From the IMG/VR virus record IMGVR_UViG_3300027712_001108, positions 1 to 64,000 of that record: DNA of 64,000 nucleotides; one strand, 5' to 3'. The notes below the pieces were generated by a model that saw only the letters and a program-made list of their open reading frames with translations, searched no databases and had not been told where the DNA came from. Positions 1-52,369 of the stretch are shown piece after piece. Source of the stretch: a virus. Every line of letters starts with the position of its first letter. The first letter of the stretch is position 1. A program made the position numbers and the translations under genes.

Positions 1-1053
1 TATAACTCCTTTAACACCACCAGCAGCACTGGTAAATGTTAAATTATTAAAAGTATTTGTGCCGCTTATAGTTGGAAAATTGTTTGCACCGGTTGAGGTA
101 AAACTCACATTATAGAACGTTAATCCACCACCGTTGAATGTTGTGTTAGCAGTACTGCTAACCAACGTGCTGGTACCTGCGTTGAATGTCAATCCGGTTG
201 TAACAGTAAAATTAACAAACGTAGCAGTATTAGTAGATGTGATAGTAGACGACCCAAAATTTATAGTTCTTGTTGTGGTACTAGAACTATAAAGCGCACC
301 CTGTGTCAGCGTCATATTAAAGTTGCCGGTGTCAAAAGTACCCCTGACAACTCTGAATGAGTCAGTACTGTTTATAGCACTAGTCCATGCACTACCCAGC
401 GTCCATCCGCCGCCGGTACCATCTAATGCTATATAACTAGTGGTTGTACCTAAAATAGTCACACCATTTGTAGTAATGGTTTTACCAGTTGCAGTAGCAC
501 AGAATACTATTATTGGTGTTGCAGTCCACGTCAAGTTAGCGGCAGGCAGTGTCATACTACCGTAGATGCTCCAACAAGTCAATGCTGCGCCTGCTAATGT
601 AACTGCACCACTTGCTGGTCCAGCAATATTCACGTCAAGACAACTAGGTCCTGAATAAATCGTGATACTGGTAACTGTTTGTGATATGCTAAGGTTATAG
701 GTACCAAGTCCGCCAGACCCTGTACCAAAGCTAGTAATATACGTGCCGCCAGCCACGTAGGTTGTAGCAGTTGGTCCGGTAGCTGTGCCAGCATAAATGC
801 TGTTTCCAACTGCTAATGCGCCGCTGGTAACTACAGTAATGGTTAGCACTGTACCTGCAATAGTACCTGTACCAACAAAGCCGTTGGCCATTGTTACTGT
901 ATAAAGTGTTGCGTTGGATGCACTGTCAAATATCACACTGTCTGCATAGGTTGGTGCAGCAGCAAGTGTGGTTCTACCTGCATCGCTATACCAGTTTGTG
1001 GCAGTGTTAGAATCCCAGGTGCCTGATCCGCCGCCCCAATATCGTGTGGCCAT
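1..1053 (-). CDS. Virion fibre / adhesin-like protein, N-terminal part (runs off window edge)
   Basis: Open frame from ATG at 1053 (MATRYWGGGSGTWDSNTATNW...) to base 1 with no stop; Thr/Gly/Ser/Asn-rich beta-rich sequence; absent from the ORF track because it is incomplete. Confidence 0.75.
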   Translation of the reverse strand, partial: MATRYWGGGSGTWDSNTATNWYSDAGRTTLAAAPTYADSVIFDSASNATLYTVTMANGFVGTGTIAGTVLTITVVTSGALAVGNSIYAGTATGPTATTYVAGGTYITSFGTGSGGLGTYNLSISQTVTSITIYSGPSCLDVNIAGPASGAVTLAGAALTCWSIYGSMTLPAANLTWTATPIIVFCATATGKTITTNGVTILGTTTSYIALDGTGGGWTLGSAWTSAINSTDSFRVVRGTFDTGNFNMTLTQGALYSSSTTTRTINFGSSTITSTNTATFVNFTVTTGLTFNAGTSTLVSSTANTTFNGGGLTFYNVSFTSTGANNFPTISGTNTFNNLTFTSAAGGVKGVI

Positions 1054-1059
1054 GAGTTG

Positions 1060-1254
1060 TTACTCCTCTACCGGAGTGATAGCAGCGATCCATGCTGCAA
1101 AACGCTGTTGCTGCATTTCAGTTATTGCAGCATCTGTGATGTTGATATAATCAATGGGACTTAGTACTATAGAGTCTTTGAATGACTGACCATTGTAGTC
1201 AAATTCAAAACCTATACTCCACCATCCGTCTGGTCGTTGTGTTGCCGAACCCAT
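1060..1254 (-). CDS. Hypothetical protein, probably a small virion/fibre-associated protein
   Basis: 64-aa ORF directly upstream of the fibre gene; TAAATA motif at 1279-1284 (- strand). Confidence 0.55.
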   Translation of the reverse strand: MGSATQRPDGWWSIGFEFDYNGQSFKDSIVLSPIDYINITDAAITEMQQQRFAAWIAAITPVEE

Positions 1255-1304
1255 GTTTGTAGAATCCCAAATACAGGGTATTTATCTGGAATTCTACTAG
1301 ATTT

Positions 1305-1763
1305 TTACACAATGATGATACGGTCGAAGCCTTCGTCCGCAGTGGGCATTTCCAACTGCGATACCATGCCCATGACAATGTTGGCAGGAATGGTTTTTCC
1401 AGGACGATTGGCCAGTCGTCGCTGCAATTCTGCTTCAGGCGGAGTATTAAAGTACACAGCAATTTTTTCGTAATGCGCAGGCACACGATTCAATTTCTTG
1501 CCACGAGTCTTGGCAGTTACATTGGTCTGATCCCAGATTACATCGTGTCCTGCTGCAAACGCAGCCACAGCATCTGCATGCATTTGCCGTTCAGCTTCAC
1601 CAATCACAGACTTGAACATGTCATTGTAGGTTTTGCCTGCGGCTTCCGCAGCAGCTTCGATTTTGTCATCTGTGCTGAGAATAACCGCATCGATGCCGCA
1701 ATTTTTGATCCACGTGCTTTTACCAGAACCGGGTACGCCAATCAAGATGTAAAGTTTTTGCAT
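1305..1763 (-). CDS. P-loop kinase, AAA_33 / polynucleotide-kinase-like
   Basis: Walker A GVPGSGKST, ILSTDD, VIWDQTN, lid RRLANR; GGAG Shine-Dalgarno. Confidence 0.85.
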   Translation of the reverse strand: MQKLYILIGVPGSGKSTWIKNCGIDAVILSTDDKIEAAAEAAGKTYNDMFKSVIGEAERQMHADAVAAFAAGHDVIWDQTNVTAKTRGKKLNRVPAHYEKIAVYFNTPPEAELQRRLANRPGKTIPANIVMGMVSQLEMPTADEGFDRIIIV

Positions 1764-1788
1764 GTGCTATCTCCTTGTTATGCGATGT

Positions 1789-2004
1789 TTATACGGTATC
1801 CACACTGTTGTCAACAGTGTCTGGACCTTTCATAAACTTGAGAAAGTGAAGATTGCCTTCCAGTTCTTCTTCACTGATACCACAACTCCACGCATGTAGG
1901 CAATGTTCACTGTTGACTTTGCAGATAGGACACTCCCAGCCGTGACTGTGTTTGAATTCATATAGTACCCAACACTTTTCACAAACGGGAGGTCCAAGGC
2001 CCAT
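1789..2004 (-). CDS. Small Zn-ribbon protein
   Basis: CEKC ... CPIC motifs in 71 aa; packed in the operon. Confidence 0.55.
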   Translation of the reverse strand: MGLGPPVCEKCWVLYEFKHSHGWECPICKVNSEHCLHAWSCGISEEELEGNLHFLKFMKGPDTVDNSVDTV

Positions 2005-2005
2005 T

Positions 2006-2353
2006 TTACTCTATCCCTAATATAAGTTTTGCGTCATCGCTCATGAGTTCCGGACCCCATGTTGGATCAAATACCACATTAACGGTTACATTGTCGATGC
2101 CTTTAACTGCCAACGTTGCAAATCTAACATCGTTGACAATATCATCTGCACTAGGGCAAAATGCACTGGTTAGACTCATGATTATATCACATGTGTTATC
2201 TATAATGTTGACATTATATATAAGACCCAGATCATAGACATTGACGCTAATCTCTGGGTCATATACTTCTTTTAAATTTTCAACAATTAGATCATGACGG
2301 TTGTCTGGGTCAACAGTTTGATTGTTGGCATATATTACTGCCGTTGTATCCAT
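2006..2353 (-). CDS. DUF59 / SufT / MIP18-family Fe-S cluster assembly protein
   Basis: LKEVYDPEISVNVYDLGLIY and SLTSAFCP signatures; C-terminal WGPELMSDDAKLILG. Confidence 0.9.
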   Translation of the reverse strand: MDTTAVIYANNQTVDPDNRHDLIVENLKEVYDPEISVNVYDLGLIYNVNIIDNTCDIIMSLTSAFCPSADDIVNDVRFATLAVKGIDNVTVNVVFDPTWGPELMSDDAKLILGIE

Positions 2354-2376
2354 AATTTTACCCAATGTTTCTATAA

Positions 2377-2979
2377 TCAGTCAGACATCTTACGCTTGTC
2401 GATGACCACATCTGCCAGGCCATAGGCCACAGATTCAGCAGCAGTCATAAACGTATCGCGGTCCATGTCGCGCTCAAACTCTTCATAAGTCTTGCCCACG
2501 CTGTTGTGATCCACATAGATCTGTGTGAGTTCAACTTTCATGCGTTCAATCTCACGTAGTGTAATAGCCATGTCGCTGACCATACCCTGTGCCCCACCTG
2601 AGGGCTGATGGATCATATGACGTGCATGCTTCATAATATAGCGATGCCCAGGTGCACCTGCTTGTGCTAACAGTGACCCCATGCTTGCAGCTTGTCCCAT
2701 GACAAATGTGTACACAGGGCATTGAATAAATTGCATTGTATCGAAAATACTCATACCAGCAGTGACTGATCCGCCTGGTGAATTAATATAGAAATTGATT
2801 GGCGACTTGGCATTTTCGCTTTCAAGAAACAGCAATTGTGCAACCAACAAGCTGGCACTGTGATTGTTAACATCAGTATCGAGTATAATCACTCGGTCGC
2901 GAAGTAATCTGCTGTATATATCGTAGCTGCGTTCGCCATTGGCGCTTTTTTCTACAACGATTGGCACTAGATTGGGCAT
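2377..2979 (-). CDS. clpP: ATP-dependent Clp protease proteolytic subunit
   Basis: [40 protein letters not shown] (Ser), MIHQP (His), DRD (Asp); start reset to ATG at 2979. Confidence 0.97.
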
Positions 2980-3013
2980 GGTATTTCCTTTGTATGTTAT
3001 ATTAAGTATAGTA

Positions 3014-3172
3014 TCAGTGACAGATTTTCTCAATCTCGTCAGCAGTGCGGTCGCTCATTGCAAAGCCGGCAATGCAATTGTTCCTGTTGTAATCATTGAC
3101 AGCTAACGAGCATGACATAGCAACAACTATACCCACTATCATAATTACAAACCATTTTAGTTCCATTTCCAT
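3014..3172 (-). CDS. Small membrane protein
   Basis: [21 protein letters not shown] has a single TM segment; GGAG upstream. Confidence 0.55.
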
Positions 3173-3203
3173 TTGCGTTGCTCCGTGTGTTACGCAGTTT
3201 ATG

Positions 3204-3617
3204 TTATAGCCAATGCATCTTAAACAGCACAGCATCTGCATCGTAAGCAAACCAAAATCTGCCAGCTGTAGTAACAAATGATCCTGGCTTCAAATTCTGC
3301 TCGCACCATGCAAACGCAGGCTTGTAACTGCTTCGGATTTTCACTGACTGATATCCAAAGTTATCTAATGTAGACGTTTTTTGAAAACGTCTACGATTGT
3401 ACAGACGTAGAAAATGTTGATAGTGTACTTTGTCCATTTTAAGATGCGCTCCGTCCTTTAACCAACCAGGTATAATATCGTCTGCCCAAATCACAGCATT
3501 CATATATGATTTTCCTGTCTGTCTAGCTTTTAAAAAAGTTATAGTTTGTGTTGCAGTTGCGGCAATGGCATCAGCTTTCTTACCCGCAGTTATAGCATCA
3601 TAAAATTTATAATGCAT
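3204..3617 (-). CDS. Hypothetical protein (small phage WC...F-x-F...D-A family)
   Basis: 137-aa ORF in the operon; C-terminal AFAWCEQNL...FWFAYDADAVLFKMHWL. Confidence 0.6.
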   Translation of the reverse strand: MHYKFYDAITAGKKADAIAATATQTITFLKARQTGKSYMNAVIWADDIIPGWLKDGAHLKMDKVHYQHFLRLYNRRRFQKTSTLDNFGYQSVKIRSSYKPAFAWCEQNLKPGSFVTTAGRFWFAYDADAVLFKMHWL

Positions 3618-3620
3618 GAG

Positions 3621-4445
3621 TTATTCCCATTCTTTCAAAGCACTGGCACTCACTGCTGCAACAATGGCATCCACATCTGACTGATACAAGCCACTGCTGG
3701 CAAAACTATTGAATTCTCCAATTCTAGCACCGCGTTCTTCGCAGAGGAAGATGTCCACAGTGTAACAGGTATCCAACTGCCAGTCTGCTGTGGCAACACG
3801 TTCTGCCATGGCAACACAGTCTGGATGCAAGTCGATGCGTGTCATCAACCTGTCATCCCAGCGGTATTGCGATCCAGTGACTATCTTGCGATCACATATC
3901 ACAAAACGATTCTCACACTTGATAGGACGAGCTCGGGCAATCAAACACTGTTCATGGTCAAAGGGTCTGCTGGTCTGTTTGAGTGCAGACAATTCATAGT
4001 CCAGCTTGTCCATGGTCACATCAAAGCCAGTGAAGCTTTTGAAGCCGCTGTCTGGCCGCATGAAGATGTGATCGCCAAACAGATCGCGAATCATAGACTT
4101 GCTGCGGGCAATCATGCCCACTGGCATGTAGACACAGTGTTCATTGAAGTACCAGTCACCGGGCAACTGCGTCATGTAAAAGCTGGTGTCAGTGTCTTTT
4201 TTGAAACCATATGCGCCGGGTGTATAGCCACGGTTTTTGGTGCGTATGAACTTGATAGGACCATACATGACCACGCATTCATCTTGTCCATAGGGAATGT
4301 CTGCATACTCGCGAGTATTGGGATCAAAGTCACTTTGAAAGTATTCGATGCCTGCACGTTGCAATGCAGAGTCAATCTGTGGCGATCCGGGCCTACGAAA
4401 GATTTCAGTACTGATTGCCCATTTAACTGTGGAAGGTGTGCGCAT
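3621..4445 (-). CDS. ATP-grasp domain protein (DUF4343 / R2K-like)
   Basis: IFMRPDSGFKSFTG, ENRF, YTVDIF, IGEFNSFASSGLY. Confidence 0.8.
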   Translation of the reverse strand: MRTPSTVKWAISTEIFRRPGSPQIDSALQRAGIEYFQSDFDPNTREYADIPYGQDECVVMYGPIKFIRTKNRGYTPGAYGFKKDTDTSFYMTQLPGDWYFNEHCVYMPVGMIARSKSMIRDLFGDHIFMRPDSGFKSFTGFDVTMDKLDYELSALKQTSRPFDHEQCLIARARPIKCENRFVICDRKIVTGSQYRWDDRLMTRIDLHPDCVAMAERVATADWQLDTCYTVDIFLCEERGARIGEFNSFASSGLYQSDVDAIVAAVSASALKEWE

Positions 4446-4996
4446 TATGGTCCTGCTTCAATCATGTCTTTTGCAAAGTTTAGTGCCACCATGCAGTGTT
4501 GTACACCTACAATCTGAGTGTGACAATCGATCAGAGCATTGTGTTGGCCTTCGGGATTGTTATCACGTAGATCATCCCATACTGCAAACAGTGTACGGCT
4601 ATCGAGAACTCTGCTATAACGCCACGGCGCACTCATGCCATACTGTTGATAGAGATTTTCAAGAATGACCAAATCAAACTGCGGCCCTTGCGCCCATACA
4701 CTTTTACTGCCTTTGACAAATGCACTGAGTTCTTTAAGAGCTGTGGCTATGTCAATGCGGTTGTCAGGATCAAATGCTTCTGTGCGTACTGCATCATCTT
4801 GTTTAAGCCACCAGTCTATGGTGTCAGCTTCACTGCAACGGTTGATCTTCTCTTGTTCATCAATGCTCAACCGCATATAGAAGTTGTCAATGGGCTCACT
4901 CAGCGTATTTGGATTAAATTTAGCTGCACCCACTGTGAGGACAATGCAGTTGGCAGATACGCCCAGCGTTTCGATATCAATCATTACATCATGCAT
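4445..4996 (-). CDS. DEDDh 3'-5' exoribonuclease (Rv2179c/DUF5051-like)
   Basis: VMIDIETLG, WAQGPQFD, DSRT, HNALID. Confidence 0.88.
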   Translation of the reverse strand: MHDVMIDIETLGVSANCIVLTVGAAKFNPNTLSEPIDNFYMRLSIDEQEKINRCSEADTIDWWLKQDDAVRTEAFDPDNRIDIATALKELSAFVKGSKSVWAQGPQFDLVILENLYQQYGMSAPWRYSRVLDSRTLFAVWDDLRDNNPEGQHNALIDCHTQIVGVQHCMVALNFAKDMIEAGP

Positions 4997-5061: not shown

Positions 5062-5067
5062 TAAATA
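5062..5067 (+). promoter_or_regulatory. Putative late promoter TAAATA, 5 nt before the kinase ATG
   Basis: gcTAAATAttcacATG; the same motif and spacing recur before many genes in the window. Confidence 0.55.
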
Positions 5068-5072
5068 TTCAC

Positions 5073-5681
5073 ATGCGCATCAATGAACTCACTGGTTACC
5101 GTTCCCATCCTGCTTATAAACAAGCAAGATCCACGTTTGACGATACCACAGACAAATGGGCCATGCAGACTCGTCGCAAAGACAAACTGGAACAGTTTAG
5201 AACGTTTCTAGAAAAAAATGGCTTCAAGTTTATAGACAAGGGATCGTTTGGCGCAGTATTTGAACGTCCTGGATATCCATGGGTATTTAAAATATTCAAC
5301 AGGGATCCTGCATACTTACACTTCGTAAAGTATGCCATGGCACATCAGGATAATCCACACTTGCCACGGATCAAAGGCATCATAAAAATCAACGACGATA
5401 CCTATGCAGTGCGTATGGAACGCTTGAGTCCAATACCGCTTGGCACAGAGCCTGCAATGTCACTGATACGTAAAATAGTCGGCATTGACAGCTATGGCGA
5501 TCTCAGCGATGCAGATGTGGCATGGATAGACAAAAAGTTTCCAGGCATTTCTGCGTTTTTCAAAAGCTTTCCGTTGGGTGAGTTTGAATACGATCTACAC
5601 TTACAAAACTTCATGCAGCGTGGCAAGACCATGGTTATAGTAGACCCCATATATGATTATAGAGAAATGCAGGGCAACTGA
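5073..5681 (+). CDS. Protein-kinase-like enzyme (T7 gp0.7-like), paralog 1
   Basis: Gly loop DKGSFGAV, VFK lysine, catalytic DLHLQN, metal-binding IVDP. Confidence 0.8.
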   Translation: MRINELTGYRSHPAYKQARSTFDDTTDKWAMQTRRKDKLEQFRTFLEKNGFKFIDKGSFGAVFERPGYPWVFKIFNRDPAYLHFVKYAMAHQDNPHLPRIKGIIKINDDTYAVRMERLSPIPLGTEPAMSLIRKIVGIDSYGDLSDADVAWIDKKFPGISAFFKSFPLGEFEYDLHLQNFMQRGKTMVIVDPIYDYREMQGN

Positions 5682-6283
5682 TGCAGCTACGTGATTTATT
5701 CGAACGTCACTATAAAAGCTTGCCAGCGTATCAGCAGGCTCACAGTGATTTCTCTGACACCAGTACGCATGGTGCAGCCATGCACGGCATGCTGAAATTT
5801 GATAAATTCATGCGTGAAAATGGATTTGAACTGCTGGGATCGGGCGGATTTGCCAACGTTTATGAACGACCAGGATATCCTTGGGTATTCAAAATCTTCA
5901 CTGGTGATACAGCATACCTGTCATGGTTGGAATATGTCACTGCCAATCAAGGCAACGAACATGTGCCTAAACTACGAGGTAAACCATTTAAAATCAACAA
6001 CGGTACCTATGCCATACGCATGGAAAAATTAACACCATTGCCCGGCAATTTCACGGATGATCCATTGCTTGATGCTGTTATGTATGGCGGGCTTCCACTT
6101 ACACGCAAGTCTGAAAGCACTATTACAGATCTAGGGCATCCGGATTTATTGGCTGTTTTAAAAGCGATAATGAAAATTGCATATTCTAATAAAAATTACA
6201 ACACAGATTTACATAGATATAATCTAATGATGCGCGGTAACACACCTGTTATAACAGACCCGCTTGCAGATTCCAGGGTATAA
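5681..6283 (+). CDS. Protein-kinase-like enzyme (T7 gp0.7-like), paralog 2
   Basis: LGSGGFANV, VFK, DLHRYN, ITDP; TGATG overlap with paralog 1. Confidence 0.8.
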   Translation: MQLRDLFERHYKSLPAYQQAHSDFSDTSTHGAAMHGMLKFDKFMRENGFELLGSGGFANVYERPGYPWVFKIFTGDTAYLSWLEYVTANQGNEHVPKLRGKPFKINNGTYAIRMEKLTPLPGNFTDDPLLDAVMYGGLPLTRKSESTITDLGHPDLLAVLKAIMKIAYSNKNYNTDLHRYNLMMRGNTPVITDPLADSRV

Positions 6284-6286
6284 AAC

Positions 6287-7006
6287 ATGCGCTTACAACA
6301 ACTATTCCTCAACGAAAACACAGTGCTTGATGAACTCACACACTACAAAAACTTGCCTGCGTACAAAACTGCGCAAGATACATTTGCAGGTGTTGGACGT
6401 GGTGGTCATTACAGTGCCATGAAAAAGTTCAACGAGTTCATGAATGAACACGGCTTTAGGAAAATGGGCGAAGGTGCATTTGGTGCTGTGTATGAAAAGG
6501 AAGGATATCCATGGGTATTCAAAGTATTTCATGGAGATCCTGCATACTTGGATTTCTTACGCTATGCCATTGCACATCAAAATAACCCACATGTGCCAAA
6601 GTTCAAAGGCAAACCCTTCAAAATAGATGATAAAACCTATGCCATACGCATGGAAAAACTATATGAATGGACCAGTTACTTTGATCTTATGGGACATACC
6701 AAATCATTGATGTATGCTGTATCTTCGTGGAGACCGCCTGTGTCACCAGACCAAGAAGCAGTGTTTAAGTCACGCGGTGCCGCAGGATTAATACCAGTAC
6801 TCAACAATCTTGCTCAATTGTGTGGTAGTAAAAATTACAGACTAGACCTACACCATGGTAATATTATGAGACGTGGCAATACCATAGTAATAGTAGATCC
6901 TCTGGTAGACGATGCGAGTTTGCAAAGAAGTGAACCAAATATGGCGCCGCCTGATGAATCGCAACAGTCCACTCAACCGGGCAGATTTGAACCCAGTTCA
7001 AAGTGA
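6287..7006 (+). CDS. Protein-kinase-like enzyme (T7 gp0.7-like), paralog 3
   Basis: MGEGAFGAV, VFK, DLHHGN, IVDP. Confidence 0.8.
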   Translation: MRLQQLFLNENTVLDELTHYKNLPAYKTAQDTFAGVGRGGHYSAMKKFNEFMNEHGFRKMGEGAFGAVYEKEGYPWVFKVFHGDPAYLDFLRYAIAHQNNPHVPKFKGKPFKIDDKTYAIRMEKLYEWTSYFDLMGHTKSLMYAVSSWRPPVSPDQEAVFKSRGAAGLIPVLNNLAQLCGSKNYRLDLHHGNIMRRGNTIVIVDPLVDDASLQRSEPNMAPPDESQQSTQPGRFEPSSK

Positions 7007-7221
7007 TCTTCAATAAAGCCGCCAACTGGACAAAATCCTTTGTTGTAATTGTTGTTTGCAATTTCTGCACATTCGCGAACAATCAGTTCAGCAAACTTTT
7101 CCAGTGATCCAGGGTTGTTCAGAGACTCTTGCCAAATGCGCACCCGTTCTGTGTCAGCATCTGCCCATTTGGTTTGTACAAGCCCTGCTTGTTTGGCCAG
7201 TTCTTTGATACGTGGATTCAT
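6973..7221 (-). CDS. Phage hypothetical protein
   Basis: MNPRIKELAKQAG...LEKFAELIVRECA, a pattern typical of small environmental-phage proteins; ATGA overlap with upstream gene. Confidence 0.65.
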   Translation of the reverse strand: MNPRIKELAKQAGLVQTKWADADTERVRIWQESLNNPGSLEKFAELIVRECAEIANNNYNKGFCPVGGFIEDHFELGSNLPG

Positions 7222-7442
7222 GCTGCGTCCTCATAAACTATGTTATAACCTGTGGGCATTTTTCTGCGCGGTATGTCACGGTTACGTTCCCGCTGCATCC
7301 AGTCCCACACTTGCTGTGCCAACGGATCCTTATATACTCGTCGTGTTACAGGACCAAATCGTTCACCTTTGGGACCTACTAACCACATATCTTTGCGATA
7401 CTCATATTCATAAGTCATGGTTTCAATCCATATTTTCTGCAC
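7218..7442 (-). CDS. Hypothetical protein
   Basis: ORF packed in the minus-strand operon; true start may be internal (MTYEYEY). Confidence 0.5.
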   Translation of the reverse strand: MQKIWIETMTYEYEYRKDMWLVGPKGERFGPVTRRVYKDPLAQQVWDWMQRERNRDIPRRKMPTGYNIVYEDAA

Positions 7443-7645
7443 AGTGCAGCATGACCTGCCACTGCTTCATCCAGTGTTTGATAGCGATCAACGACTTCAC
7501 TGCCGTTTTCTGAGAACAAGCAAGACTCATACTTGTAACCAAAATCCATGCCCGGTATAGTGGGCATTTCCACAGTGCTCAAGCGGATTGTTTCAAGACT
7601 AAACAATCCGCCATCGCTTGATACCTTTTGCCAACGCGGCGCCAT
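7415..7645 (-). CDS. Hypothetical protein
   Basis: 76 aa, abuts the RNA ligase stop; STV...YESCLF...RYQTLDEAVAGH. Confidence 0.6.
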   Translation of the reverse strand: MAPRWQKVSSDGGLFSLETIRLSTVEMPTIPGMDFGYKYESCLFSENGSEVVDRYQTLDEAVAGHAALCRKYGLKP

Positions 7646-8844
7646 CAGTTGTCTCCATCAAAGTGATAAGTCCATTTGATATCCTTCCACAGATGCCGCA
7701 CGGAATCAATGGTAGTCTGAGTGCCAGTGTGCTTGCGGATATGCGCAACCAGCATTGCACGAGTATCTTTGCCGTCAAATTTGCCAAACACAATCATGGG
7801 AGCCACAGGGTCGTTCTTCTTGATAGTGGGCATCCACTCAGTGGCATAACGCTTGCGGTCCAAGCCAGATGCCACCACACCGTTGTAATAACGGTCGTAG
7901 CTGTCAACACTTGCAGCAATGCCTTCCCAAAAGTCATTTTCAAACTGGTCAACTCGATGACGGTCATCATCCAACATAAACGCTTTGCTGTCATCCAGCT
8001 TGTCCGTGACAATCAACTTGATCAAGTTCTTTTCCAAGTTCAAGTTGTCTTTGGTCTTATGGATACGACAGTACCACTCGCCTTTGATTTTGTGCATTTC
8101 GCCATCGTCAAAACGAATGATCCAACCTTCCATGCCTTCAACATCATGGGTCTCAGACAACAGTCGTTCCATGTTGGCAGCAGTGCCGTCGTAAGCACGA
8201 ACAACATCAATATTGTAAGAACCTCCCCATTCTAGCAAGTCGGCATAGCCGACATATTCACCAGAGACATTGTGACGAATAGCCAGCAATACCAAACGGT
8301 CCTCTGGATAGTCAATGACAATGCGTTGCTTACGGCTGCACCATTCAAAGATGGGAGTCATACCGCGAGTGATGCATTCGCGTGCCATAGATTCATAACC
8401 ATGAGTACCAAGAGTAGCAATGAACAGTTCTGCACCCATGCCAACATCAGTGATACCCATCTTGGTACCCCAACGGATACCCGCATCAGTGATCACAGGC
8501 GTAATCATAGAACCATCCAGCTTTTCCAAGATCACATGCGGACGATTCAAATCAATGCAGTGCATTTGAGTTTCGTCACGTTCGTTGACGTTGAAGAACT
8601 TGTGCAAACGGCGTGCCATGATTTTACCGTCGTTATGGAAAAGTATACCACGGCATTCTCGACGAATGGCAGCATGCAGATCGTATTCATTGTTCAACAT
8701 CACAGGAGGGAACGTATCAATCATGTTGACCATGTAGTTGACAACGTAGCCCCAATCGCGTTCAACAATTTTAAATTCATCGCGACCTGCAATGGCAGCA
8801 CGAACATCGTCGATATGATTGATGTTAGGAAATTGGTAGCCCAT
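7645..8844 (-). CDS. T4 Rnl1-like RNA ligase
   Basis: RECRGI, HKFFN, motif I EKLDGS, IFEW, EGWII, KIKGEWY; start reset to MGYQFP. Confidence 0.92.
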   Translation of the reverse strand: MGYQFPNINHIDDVRAAIAGRDEFKIVERDWGYVVNYMVNMIDTFPPVMLNNEYDLHAAIRRECRGILFHNDGKIMARRLHKFFNVNERDETQMHCIDLNRPHVILEKLDGSMITPVITDAGIRWGTKMGITDVGMGAELFIATLGTHGYESMARECITRGMTPIFEWCSRKQRIVIDYPEDRLVLLAIRHNVSGEYVGYADLLEWGGSYNIDVVRAYDGTAANMERLLSETHDVEGMEGWIIRFDDGEMHKIKGEWYCRIHKTKDNLNLEKNLIKLIVTDKLDDSKAFMLDDDRHRVDQFENDFWEGIAASVDSYDRYYNGVVASGLDRKRYATEWMPTIKKNDPVAPMIVFGKFDGKDTRAMLVAHIRKHTGTQTTIDSVRHLWKDIKWTYHFDGDN

Positions 8845-8920
8845 GTCGTTCAACCCTGTATGAATAACTGTGTATGGTTGACAATAACACATAGCAAATT
8901 ACTGTCAACCATATTTTTAT

Positions 8921-9409
8921 TTAAAGATGTAAAAACGAACGTTTTTTGTCTGCAACGATTGCAGGGATCGCTGCCATAACTCGTCTACAATAGGCACTGG
9001 GTTTTTTGCCTAATTTTGCATATGTACCACGGTTATAGAGAGTAGCTGCTTTACACCAATCGCCCTTTGCACGATCTAGCGCCTCTTTGAGGTATAGCAT
9101 ACTCCAGGTCAGGTTCGTTTCTGGGTCAAACAACAACTTGCAGTTGCCTTTGAATCCCAGACCTTTGGCAGTGGCACATCTGATCTGACCTAGACCATAG
9201 TTGCCACTGTTATAAGCTCGCACATCGAAAGTACTTTCGACCTTTATGATAGCGTATGCCAGCGAGAATGGCACCTGTCGTTCTGCGGTCTTGTCAGCGA
9301 TTAACTGAACCAATGGAGGAAGGCTATCAACATTCACAACATCGGCACCCCATGCTTTGCAGCTAACGCATGCTAACACTAGGGCTACGACCATGATTTT
9401 TAACTTCAT
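8921..9409 (-). CDS. Secreted lytic transglycosylase (SLT domain)
   Basis: Signal peptide; AIIKVES (catalytic Glu), GLGQI, LFDPETN, YNRG. Confidence 0.9.
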   Translation of the reverse strand: MKLKIMVVALVLACVSCKAWGADVVNVDSLPPLVQLIADKTAERQVPFSLAYAIIKVESTFDVRAYNSGNYGLGQIRCATAKGLGFKGNCKLLFDPETNLTWSMLYLKEALDRAKGDWCKAATLYNRGTYAKLGKKPSAYCRRVMAAIPAIVADKKRSFLHL

Positions 9410-9544
9410 AGTAATTTATTTAACTACCAAAACCGCATAATTGTCAAGCCAGTTAACTGTTGACTGCGCCAAGTACCAGATAGTAAGCGGAATATTGCTT
9501 CTTTGCACCGTCAACACACTGTTAAAGTATGCTATAATATTGAA

Positions 9545-9577
9545 AAATACTGCGTTAACTCAGTCAACGCAGTATTT
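9545..9577 (-). terminator. Rho-independent terminator downstream of the Pth2-like gene
   Basis: 12-bp inverted repeat aaatactgcgtt / aacgcagtattt ending in a T-run on the - strand. Confidence 0.6.
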
Positions 9578-9607
9578 AATTTTAGATTATTACGTTGGTT
9601 TTGCAGT

Positions 9608-51120: not shown

Positions 51121-51164
51121 AATAAAAACACCCTATGCATTGCTGCGTAGGGTGTTATTTTATT
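51121..51164. terminator. Bidirectional terminator between the convergent rpoD and HNH genes
   Basis: aacaccctatgca/tgcgtagggtgtt stem flanked by A- and T-runs. Confidence 0.75.
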
Positions 51165-51810
51165 GTCCTGACAGTCTCGGCCATCTGCATGCTTTACCAT
51201 TATTAACAAGTTTGGTAAGGGCAGCTTTTTGGTTTTTTGCGTTAATTTGTTCAGATGTCAATGCAAATATACCAGATTTATTTTCTTTAGCCCACTGCCC
51301 ACCTTTTTTGCCACCGATTTTACCTGCAAGCGCAGCATTGCCTGATTTAAATCCTGCGCCACGCTCTGCGGTTTTCTTACCACCTTGCGATGCTATCTTA
51401 ATTTTATCTTCTTTAGACAATCCATGTATACCAGACTTGGTGTTAACGGCATTACGACCGCTAATTTTTCCAGCAGCTGATCTGTGTAGTGCAGCCAATT
51501 CAGGATTGTTTTTAATCCAATTTAGTAGTCCGATGCCATTGTTTATGTTATTGATAGCAGATTTGCGGCCATTTTCTTTAGCCATCTGTATCCAGTCATC
51601 TGGCGGTATTTTCATTCTAGCTGCAATCATAACACATGCATAATAATCACATTGTAATTTATGTATGTCATAATGTTCTTGCAAGGTTACAGCTTGCAAG
51701 TTAGCAGGGTTGTTATTATGATGGTTGCCGTCTATGTGATGAATATCAATACCAGCTAGCAGTGAAACGCTATGAAAGTCTTCGTATATTTTTCTATAGT
51801 TTTTTGACAT
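51160..51810 (-). CDS. HNH endonuclease (free-standing homing-endonuclease-like) with GGK/GK repeats
   Basis: IHHIDGNHHNNNPANLQAVTLQEHYDIH; C-terminal AGKISG/QGGKK/IGGKKGG repeats. Confidence 0.8.
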   Translation of the reverse strand: MSKNYRKIYEDFHSVSLLAGIDIHHIDGNHHNNNPANLQAVTLQEHYDIHKLQCDYYACVMIAARMKIPPDDWIQMAKENGRKSAINNINNGIGLLNWIKNNPELAALHRSAAGKISGRNAVNTKSGIHGLSKEDKIKIASQGGKKTAERGAGFKSGNAALAGKIGGKKGGQWAKENKSGIFALTSEQINAKNQKAALTKLVNNGKACRWPRLSGQ

Positions 51811-51835
51811 AGTACTTGTGTGTTCCCACAAGTAT

Positions 51836-52369
51836 TTATGCTCCTAATCTATGATTAATAACATCCCAATCAATTATTTGCCAAATCTTTTTAAGATAAT
51901 CATCTTTATCCCATTTATAATCGTAGAATGCGTGTTCCCACATGTCTATGGGCAGCAACACATCTTTTACTATTTTATGATTCTTAATGGTTTTTATAGT
52001 ACCGTTTTTAGCCAAGTATACCCAGCCAGATCCCTGTATGGTTTTGGCTGCGGCAGTCATAGCACGTTTGAAATCTGGAAAATCGTTGTGTACACTTTCT
52101 ATCAATTCCAAACTAGCACCACGTGGCTTGTTGTTGCTTCGGGGTGCAGCGAATTGTGACCAATATATACCGTGTAAGAACGCACCTGCTTCGTTAAACG
52201 CAGGATCTCCTTCACTTTTGTTAAATCTATCAACATACCCTTTGGTAAGATGATCGTAATGATAGATTACAGCTTCTTTACTTAGAACGGGTTCTAATGC
52301 ATCGCGTGCATACGGCAACGGTTCCAGTGTTAGCTTTTTAGCAGCTTCTGATAATTGTGCAAGTTTCAT
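51836..52369 (-). CDS. sod: Fe/Mn superoxide dismutase
   Basis: LPYARDALEP, FLHGIYW, QGSGW, DMWEHAFY; perfect TATAAATA 5 nt upstream. Confidence 0.93.
   Translation of the reverse strand: MKLAQLSEAAKKLTLEPLPYARDALEPVLSKEAVIYHYDHLTKGYVDRFNKSEGDPAFNEAGAFLHGIYWSQFAAPRSNNKPRGASLELIESVHNDFPDFKRAMTAAAKTIQGSGWVYLAKNGTIKTIKNHKIVKDVLLPIDMWEHAFYDYKWDKDDYLKKIWQIIDWDVINHRLGA

Follow-up and report, generated by a model that had tools for sequence, protein, structure and literature searches.

What would a giant phage do with three small protein kinases encoded side by side, and at what stage of infection would it make them? The genes that raise this question, here called K1, K2 and K3, lie in tandem within the window, a stretch of 64,000 nucleotides (nt) that forms the first 64 kb of the 157,923-bp IMG/VR record IMGVR_UViG_3300027712_001108. 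CheckV puts the completeness of this record at ~30%, and the full phage genome would therefore measure ~0.5 Mb; the source is a giant uncultured T4-like phage. The original prediction, made without database searches, described the three genes as T7 gp0.7-like kinases that are apparently expressed late and possibly packaged in the virion. Our best explanation follows it in outline: K1-K3 would form a late operon of T7-type kinases that are targeted to the head by an N-terminal leader, packaged there and injected into the next host. Taken as a whole, we judge this explanation to have about an even chance of being correct, and its parts differ in strength.

The layout of the locus is as first described. 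The three open reading frames (ORFs; Table 1) are adjacent paralogs on the plus strand with pairwise identities of 41-47%, and they form an island among called genes (630-4996 and ~6973-10636) that all lie on the minus strand. The island is divergent from an exonuclease gene (4445-4996) and convergent with small minus-strand genes that begin at 6973. The K1 stop codon overlaps the K2 start codon (TGATG) and 3 nt separate the K2 stop from the K3 start; judged by this spacing, K1, K2 and K3 are one tightly packed operon.

T7-type kinase cores and the age of the paralogs

Based on profile comparison, K1-K3 are very probably T7-type kinases, homologous to the kinase domain of T7 gp0.7 and retaining its ATP-binding and catalytic residues. 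The family phrog_15752, annotated as T7 gp0.7 kinase, matches all three proteins (E 1e-11 to 5e-15). When T7 gp0.7 itself (NC_001604) was compared with a family profile of 91 sequences, all single-domain members, hhalign returned a 98.5% match (E 3.9e-15) over 163 columns, covering gp0.7 residues 53-219 of 359. In this comparison GNGHF of gp0.7 is paired with GSGGF of the family, VIKV with VFKI, DMHSGNIM with DLHRYNLM, and ITDP with ITDP. Thus, the proposed kinship with gp0.7 stands, and the DMHSGN...ITDP layout on which it had been based is present in gp0.7 and aligned with DLHxxN...ITDP. Within the alignment of the 91 homologs, E115, D176, R185 and D193 are invariant, and K71, N181 and two glycines of the Gly loop are at least 90% conserved. 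The motifs GYPWVFK and TYA[IV]RME, which had been noticed as common to the three paralogs, are indeed invariant among them, as are DLHxxN and DP; the residue after DP is L or I in K1-K3 and V in the DPV of the T7 kinase (T7K). An intact Gly loop had been claimed for each protein, which is true of K2 (GSGGFA) and K3 (GEGAFG) but not of K1 (DKGSFG), where the first Gly of GxGxxG is replaced. The chains end 10 (K1), 6 (K2) and 34 (K3) residues after DP. The hhalign match stops at gp0.7 residue 219, and the C-terminal host-shutoff/DNA-binding (SO) domain is not present in K1-K3. The 34-residue tail of K3 is rich in Pro, Ser and Gln, and that of its ortholog is likewise Pro-rich.

The family is large. 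A profile search of 1.84 billion representative proteins recovered 4256 relatives at E<=1e-3, of which 139 reach E<=1e-30, and homologs carry the precomputed family label PF27024, an entry absent from the local Pfam library. The local Pfam-A and NCBIfam libraries gave no match for K1-K3 or for a fourth paralog, K4, that is encoded elsewhere in the record. PADLOC returned nothing meaningful, a sequence-profile search of the PDB matched only the N-lobes of EGFR and RIPK3, and these weakly (best E 0.006), and GenBank phages yielded no megablast match to the locus. By tblastn we recovered seven distant cultured phages with one or two kinase copies each. Rhizobium phage RHph_I1_18 and Pseudomonas phage Milchi are examples of cultured relatives with a member of this family.

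The AlphaFold2 model of K2 is confident (mean predicted local distance difference test score, pLDDT, 92.8; predicted TM score, pTM, 0.88). From the N-terminus it comprises two helices, then an N-lobe of five strands that includes an alphaC-like helix, a set of four helices (122-169), the catalytic loop and the DP strand, after which the chain ends. Its best matches in BFVD are 'protein kinase' entries of T7-like phages (TM 0.6-0.71). The top Foldseek match in the PDB is the aminoglycoside kinase APH(2'')-Ia (E 2.8e-5), but this match is weak (TMq 0.39, root-mean-square deviation 15.6), and after realignment and re-ranking the top 50 consist solely of protein kinases, with APH(2'') outside. There is no APH match in Pfam or NCBIfam, and the C-terminal substrate-binding subdomain of APH and choline kinase (ChoK) is not in the model. 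A grouping with small-molecule kinases, which had been named as one outcome that would overturn the kinase claim, was therefore not seen.

Several lines of evidence indicate that the paralogs are old. One point of comparison is a complete relative of 518,643 bp with direct terminal repeats (G001), which carries three kinases in tandem and one solitary kinase; a further fragment (G003) also has three in tandem. In a maximum-likelihood tree K1-K4 pair one-to-one with the positional genes of G001 (support 94/90, 100/96, 100/97, 99/98) at identities of 52-65% (K1 58%, K3 65%), and K2 and K3 are sisters (94/90). The genes around the array, encoding an ATP-grasp-like protein, an exonuclease, an RNA ligase and a transglycosylase, are syntenic in G001. 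On this tree the set of four paralogs is older than the split from G001 and has kept the same order.

The paralogs differ most in one place. N-lobe identity between them is 54-62%. The segment from RME[KR]L to DLH, which the original prediction had singled out as divergent, is 8-22% identical between paralogs and 29-52% identical between orthologs; that of K1 is 8-13% identical to the other paralogs and 52% identical to its G001 ortholog. Compared with a metagenomic ortholog that is 87% identical (L034), the only close pair used, the Nei-Gojobori ratio of nonsynonymous to synonymous substitution rates (dN/dS) is 0.155 over K2 as a whole and 0.13 in its variable segment; for K1 both values are 0.08. 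We thus reject ongoing diversifying selection on this segment, with the proviso that the values of 0.08-0.13 come from that single pair: selection is purifying and the divergence is old. Old divergence together with present constraint on each insert fits non-redundant functions, and we hold that the paralogs are probably non-redundant.

The TAAATA motif and the timing of expression

Across the whole record, the 60 nt before called genes are enriched in TAAATA more than in any other hexamer (35 observed versus 3.0 expected). Its start positions cluster at -10/-11 and at -27 to -36, and the 40 nt upstream of starts, which make up 2.1% of positions, hold 31 of its 90 copies; 18 of these 31 are preceded by A, giving ATAAATA. 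One copy stands immediately before the array at the distance first reported (Table 1). Others precede a collagen-like tail-fibre gene, a GH19 enzyme, a transglycosylase (SLT), an Fe/Mn superoxide dismutase, six HNH endonuclease genes and large 'cargo' ORFs. The homologous plus-strand island of G001 starts with CTAAATATTCCCATG, that is, with the same motif (CTAAATATTCnCATG) and the same spacing, but placed before three extra genes that precede its K1-K3, and this TAAATA-N5-ATG arrangement is kept despite a protein identity of ~55-65%. A second relative, G002 (IMGVR_UViG_3300048042_000013), has CTAAATAC 7 nt before the ATG of its array, and the prohead-protease gene of G001 has ACTAAATATT 28 nt upstream. 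G001 also encodes a gp55-type late sigma factor (phrog_12791, E 6e-84), for which the match to T4 gp55 is weak.

Late promoters of T4 have the sequence TATAAATA and end at -6. With this geometry, transcription of K1 would begin on the A of the ATG or on its neighbor, and the operon mRNA would be nearly leaderless. Judged from the motif and its distribution, late transcription of the kinase operon is reasonably likely.

Some genes and words found alongside the motif deserve separate mention. The superoxide dismutase gene (window 51836-52369, minus strand) lies directly behind TATAAATATCAGC-ATG and its product begins MKLAQLSE, which is leader-like (L-S-E); it may be another late or packaged enzyme. 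The six HNH/homing-endonuclease-like genes (window 51160-51831, minus strand; record 71810, 87015, 90040, 97184 and 107129) have TAAATA within 30 nt of the start, an arrangement that resembles the late-promoter control of T4 homing endonucleases. Two further words are enriched upstream of genes in the record, TTGACAAC (6 observed versus 0.7 expected) and TGGTATAA (5 versus 0.9). The pair TTGACAAC-N4-TGGTATAAT, seen for example upstream of the gene at record 97184, is -35/-10-like with an unusually short spacer and may represent another promoter class.

Leaders, fused kinases and the fate of the proteins

All four paralogs begin with sites of the (I/L)xE type, strict in K1 (INE, residues 3-5) and K4 (IAE, 3-5) and looser in K2 (LFE, 6-8) and K3 (LNE, 8-10, and LDE, 14-16). 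At E5 and L6 the 91 homologs show at least 90% conservation, and this N-terminal part lies outside the region aligned with T7K. The leader M-[RKL]-I-x-E-[LI] is common to K1, K4, three non-kinase ORFs of the record (72346, 92548 and 135286) and an ORF of G001 with a DUF4116 match, and the non-kinase and DUF4116 proteins diverge completely after residue 6. Five of the 194 called genes carry it, two of them paralogs, as against ~0.1 expected from residue frequencies. A Peptidase_S77 prohead protease of the T4 gp21 type is encoded in G001 (88.8 bits) and in G003 (85.9 bits; cut-off 27).

The DUF4116 ORF belongs to a group of three plus-strand genes that G001 has between the exonuclease and K1 (L005:3635-5393) and that are absent from the corresponding place in the window. 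The first follows CTAAATATTCCCATG and begins MRVDEF. The third, which starts at 4785, is the DUF4116 ORF; it opens with MRINEI and has a WPEL-type module at its end.

Some relatives encode their kinases as fusions. G002 has a single ORF of 1249 aa with six T7-type kinase domains (L006:4072-7821, plus strand), in which all five junctions read (I/L)xE-L[IT]GYK and four of the five lack a Met; the fifth domain reads DMSIPN, and in the sixth both the Gly loop and the catalytic loop are degenerate. Among the top 150 family representatives, ~25 join two to five kinases in one chain, most of them with the (I/L)xE motif at the junctions, and the representative search includes four- and five-kinase chains (P0024, P0025, P0035). 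We considered whether the fused ORFs reflect read-through under another genetic code and reject this for G002, where 1249 codons are open under table 11. By analogy with T4, release of single kinases through cleavage after (I/L)xE by the head protease fits these arrangements.

In T4, a 10-residue N-terminal capsid-targeting sequence suffices for head loading and is removed by gp21, which cuts behind Glu; this is the route by which Alt and the internal proteins are delivered (PMC9026906, PMC5694885). We propose a comparable route for K1-K3. Each kinase consists of an N-lobe, a helical insert, a catalytic loop and a DP motif (the DFG equivalent), with nothing further. The operon would be transcribed late from its T4-type TAAATA promoter, read by a gp55-type sigma factor, and K2 and K3 would be translated by coupling on the near-leaderless mRNA. 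The leader M-x-(I/L)-x-E would serve as a T4-like capsid-targeting sequence that brings the kinases into the prohead core, and a gp21-type protease would cut after the Glu. The mature kinases would then be carried in the head and reach the next host together with the DNA, as do T4 Alt and IPI, and the paralogs might there phosphorylate differing sets of host proteins, probably proteins of defence and nucleic-acid handling, with the paralog-specific insert choosing the substrate in place of the DNA-binding domain of T7K. In some relatives up to six kinases would be made as one polyprotein, with (I/L)xE at each junction, and be freed by the head protease. Packaging and injection, which draw on the T4 analogy, we put forward tentatively.

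Several observations weigh against this explanation. The late expression claimed in the original prediction has in its favor the enrichment of the motif, its conservation in G001 and the gp55-type sigma factor of that relative; on the other side, TAAATA also stands before genes with no obvious late character, such as the RNA ligase gene (7645-8892) and an ORF in a radical-SAM island, no copy lies near the G003 array, and K1 of G001 is itself preceded by only AATAAATC and a Shine-Dalgarno sequence. Neither a gp55-type sigma factor nor a gp21-type protease was found in the record, which is uninformative because the record is a 30% fragment. As to the leader, (I/L)xE is a short motif and weak when taken alone, its K2 and K3 versions are loose, and (I/L)xE-L runs straight into the conserved GYKxxPxY, that is, into mature residues, and may therefore be a structural N-terminal element and not a cleavage site. 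Finally, K1 has the incomplete Gly loop described above, and the presumed class of substrates is drawn from T7K alone.

Of the alternatives, the one that survives best, though we regard it as unlikely, holds that the kinases are made late and act in the cytoplasm of the producing cell without being packaged, the conserved N-terminal motif being their first structural element. Their task might then be to shut down abortive-infection or defence proteins that are triggered late, to readjust the metabolism of the host or to phosphorylate proteins of the phage. The promoter evidence serves this alternative equally well, and so do the loose leaders of K2 and K3, the conserved L-x-G-Y-K-x-x-P-x-Y that follows the Glu, and the confident helices formed by residues 11-46 of the K2 model. 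However, the first 10 residues of that model (pLDDT ~60) are its sole low-confidence block and lie outside the confident fold, the six-residue leader also occurs on unrelated proteins, and the fused forms keep (I/L)xE at their junctions, mostly without an internal Met. These features count against this alternative.

It is improbable that K1-K3 are early or middle host-takeover kinases like T7 gp0.7, transcribed by host RNA polymerase soon after entry, with TAAATA being fortuitous or something other than a late promoter. T7K and its Autographiviridae homologues are indeed early genes (PMC13645617), and the neighbors of the array encode nucleic-acid enzymes (the exonuclease, the RNA ligase and a PNK-like ATPase) and not structural proteins. 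A weak sigma-70-like site also lies within the array, although such sites are no commoner there than in shuffled sequence. Against an early role, no sigma-70-like promoter was found on the plus strand in the 76-nt gap before K1, and TAAATA marks protease and tail-fibre genes and is conserved, with its spacing, before the G001 island.

The possibility that these proteins phosphorylate small molecules, like aminoglycoside, choline or Kdo kinases, or are pseudokinases with altered catalytic properties is very remote and we reject it: the APH(2'')-Ia match, the loss of the entire substrate-binding C-lobe after DFG, the K1 Gly loop and a surrounding genome rich in small-molecule modification genes speak for it, whereas profile comparison links them to T7K, whose Ser/Thr kinase activity is established by experiment (PMC13645617), the structural neighbors are protein kinases, and the 91 homologs show little or no variation at the Lys, the catalytic Asp and Asn and the DP Asp.

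Known systems and the surrounding genes

T7K is a broad, promiscuous anti-defence weapon whose DNA-binding domain aims it at nucleic-acid-binding proteins (PMC13645617). Like T7 gp0.7 (PHROG 15752/2828; PF27024 on homologs), K1-K3 have a kinase core with a Gly loop, VxK, D[LM]HxxN and ITDP, with DP in place of DFG and no activation loop, and by analogy they may phosphorylate host proteins, including defence proteins. Unlike gp0.7, they lack the C-terminal shutoff/DNA-binding domain and have an additional conserved N-terminal segment of ~45 residues that carries the (I/L)xE leader. There are four old paralogs here, three of them in tandem, as opposed to one gene in T7, a putative late-type promoter as opposed to early transcription by host RNA polymerase, and a T4-like phage of ~0.5 Mb as opposed to a 40-kb podovirus. 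T7K homologues in the jumbophages Munch (Salmonella) and G17 (Escherichia) have lost the SO domain and conserve the DPV valine less well, and their role was left open (PMC13645617). They resemble K1-K3 in being T7K-type kinase domains without an SO domain in very large phages; that report, however, describes no tandem arrays, multi-kinase fusions, late promoters or head-targeting leaders. Munch and G17 were not recovered by tblastn at E 1e-3, and the relationship is therefore distant.

With T4 IPI, IPII, IPIII and Alt the kinases share a TATAAATA-type late promoter, putative here, a short leader ending in (I/L)xE, a gp21-type (Peptidase_S77) protease, here encoded in relatives, and presumed action as soon as the next infection begins; Alt, too, is an enzyme that modifies host proteins. 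They differ in that the cargo is a kinase and not an ADP-ribosyltransferase or nuclease inhibitor, that the leader has 5-10 residues and another sequence (MRINE as against the T4 IP leader), and that packaging and cleavage are putative here. The kinases of polyvalent proteins, which also lack a C-lobe, form a separate monophyletic clade with a His-Asp insert in (pro)phages of Verrucomicrobia, Chlamydia and Bacteroidetes (Iyer et al. 2017, PMC5512222). They too are truncated Ser/Thr/Tyr-type cores that retain catalytic residues and occur in multidomain polypeptides, and their predicted role is to modify host proteins after delivery along with the DNA. In contrast, our family has a compact DLHxxN loop and groups with T7K, and its fusions are homo-oligomeric chains of kinases and not mixtures of domains. 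In the literature searched we met no account of T7K-type kinases arrayed in tandem or fused and combined with late promoters and head-targeting leaders.

The locus suggests that giant T4-like phages use the T7 kinase core differently, as several old, non-redundant paralogs with their own conserved inserts that are made late and may be shipped in the particle. As a broader and more speculative hypothesis, T4-like megaphages could load diverged minimal T7-type kinases into the capsid by means of a portable M-x-I-x-E leader, some of them as chains of up to six cut by the head protease, and inject them to phosphorylate several host targets before phage expression begins. If so, these would be the first protein kinases that phages are seen to deliver in the virion. 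They would be the kinase equivalent of T4 Alt and IPI, with a swappable helical insert setting the choice of substrate, and protein phosphorylation would join the injected counter-defences that act before gene expression. The fused forms would be a naturally occurring case of a head protease processing polyprotein cargo, and the family would offer very small kinase scaffolds (~190 residues) of differing specificities. Promoter, leader, protease site and insert can each be tested directly in the cultured relatives with one or two copies.

Table 1. Features of the kinase locus and related genes (positions in the window unless marked as positions in the record).
Feature	Position	Strand	Description
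TAAATA late-promoter-like motif	5062-5067	+	context GCTAAATATTCAC-ATG; 5 nt (TTCAC) before the K1 ATG at 5073
K1 kinase, 202 aa	5073-5681	+	leader MRINE-L; Gly loop DKGSFG; Lys73; catalytic Asp174 and Asn179; DP Asp191; phrog_15752 E 8e-12
K1 paralog-specific helical segment, aa 119-171	5427-5585	+	between hinge RMERL and catalytic loop
K2 kinase, 200 aa	5681-6283	+	N-terminus MQLRDLFE then R; GSGGFA; Lys71; Asp176; Asn181; Asp193; phrog_15752 E 4.5e-15
K2 paralog-specific segment, aa 118-173	6032-6199	+	modelled helices 122-126, 128-135, 142-150, 154-169
K3 kinase, 239 aa	6287-7006	+	N-terminus MRLQQLFLNE, NTVLDE, then L; GEGAFG; Lys79; Asp187; Asn192; Asp204
K3 paralog-specific segment, aa 126-184	6662-6838	+	region of the identity comparison
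K4 kinase, 190 aa, fourth paralog	120205-120777 of the record	-	leader MLIAE-L; adjoins NAMPT-like gene
PNK-like P-loop ATPase	1305-1763	-	flanks kinase island
ClpP-type protease	2377-3033	-	flanks kinase island; distinct from the gp21-type head protease of relatives
phrog_7313 ORF	3621-4445	-	flanks kinase island; labelled ATP-grasp-like in this analysis
T4 Rnl1-like RNA ligase	7645-8892	-	flanks kinase island

K4 is translationally coupled to a conserved gene of 207 aa (record 120777-121400, minus strand; L004:2070-2693) with AATAAATAA upstream, and the pair is conserved in G001 (L009:5210-6459). Around the tandem array, the PNK-like ATPase, the ClpP-type protease, the phrog_7313 ORF and the RNA ligase may constitute an RNA-repair set. 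At the far end of the array, an 82-aa ORF on the minus strand (6973-7221) overlaps the 3' end of K3 convergently by 34 nt; after it come two more coupled small ORFs (7218-7442 and 7415-7645), which lead from the RNA ligase gene.

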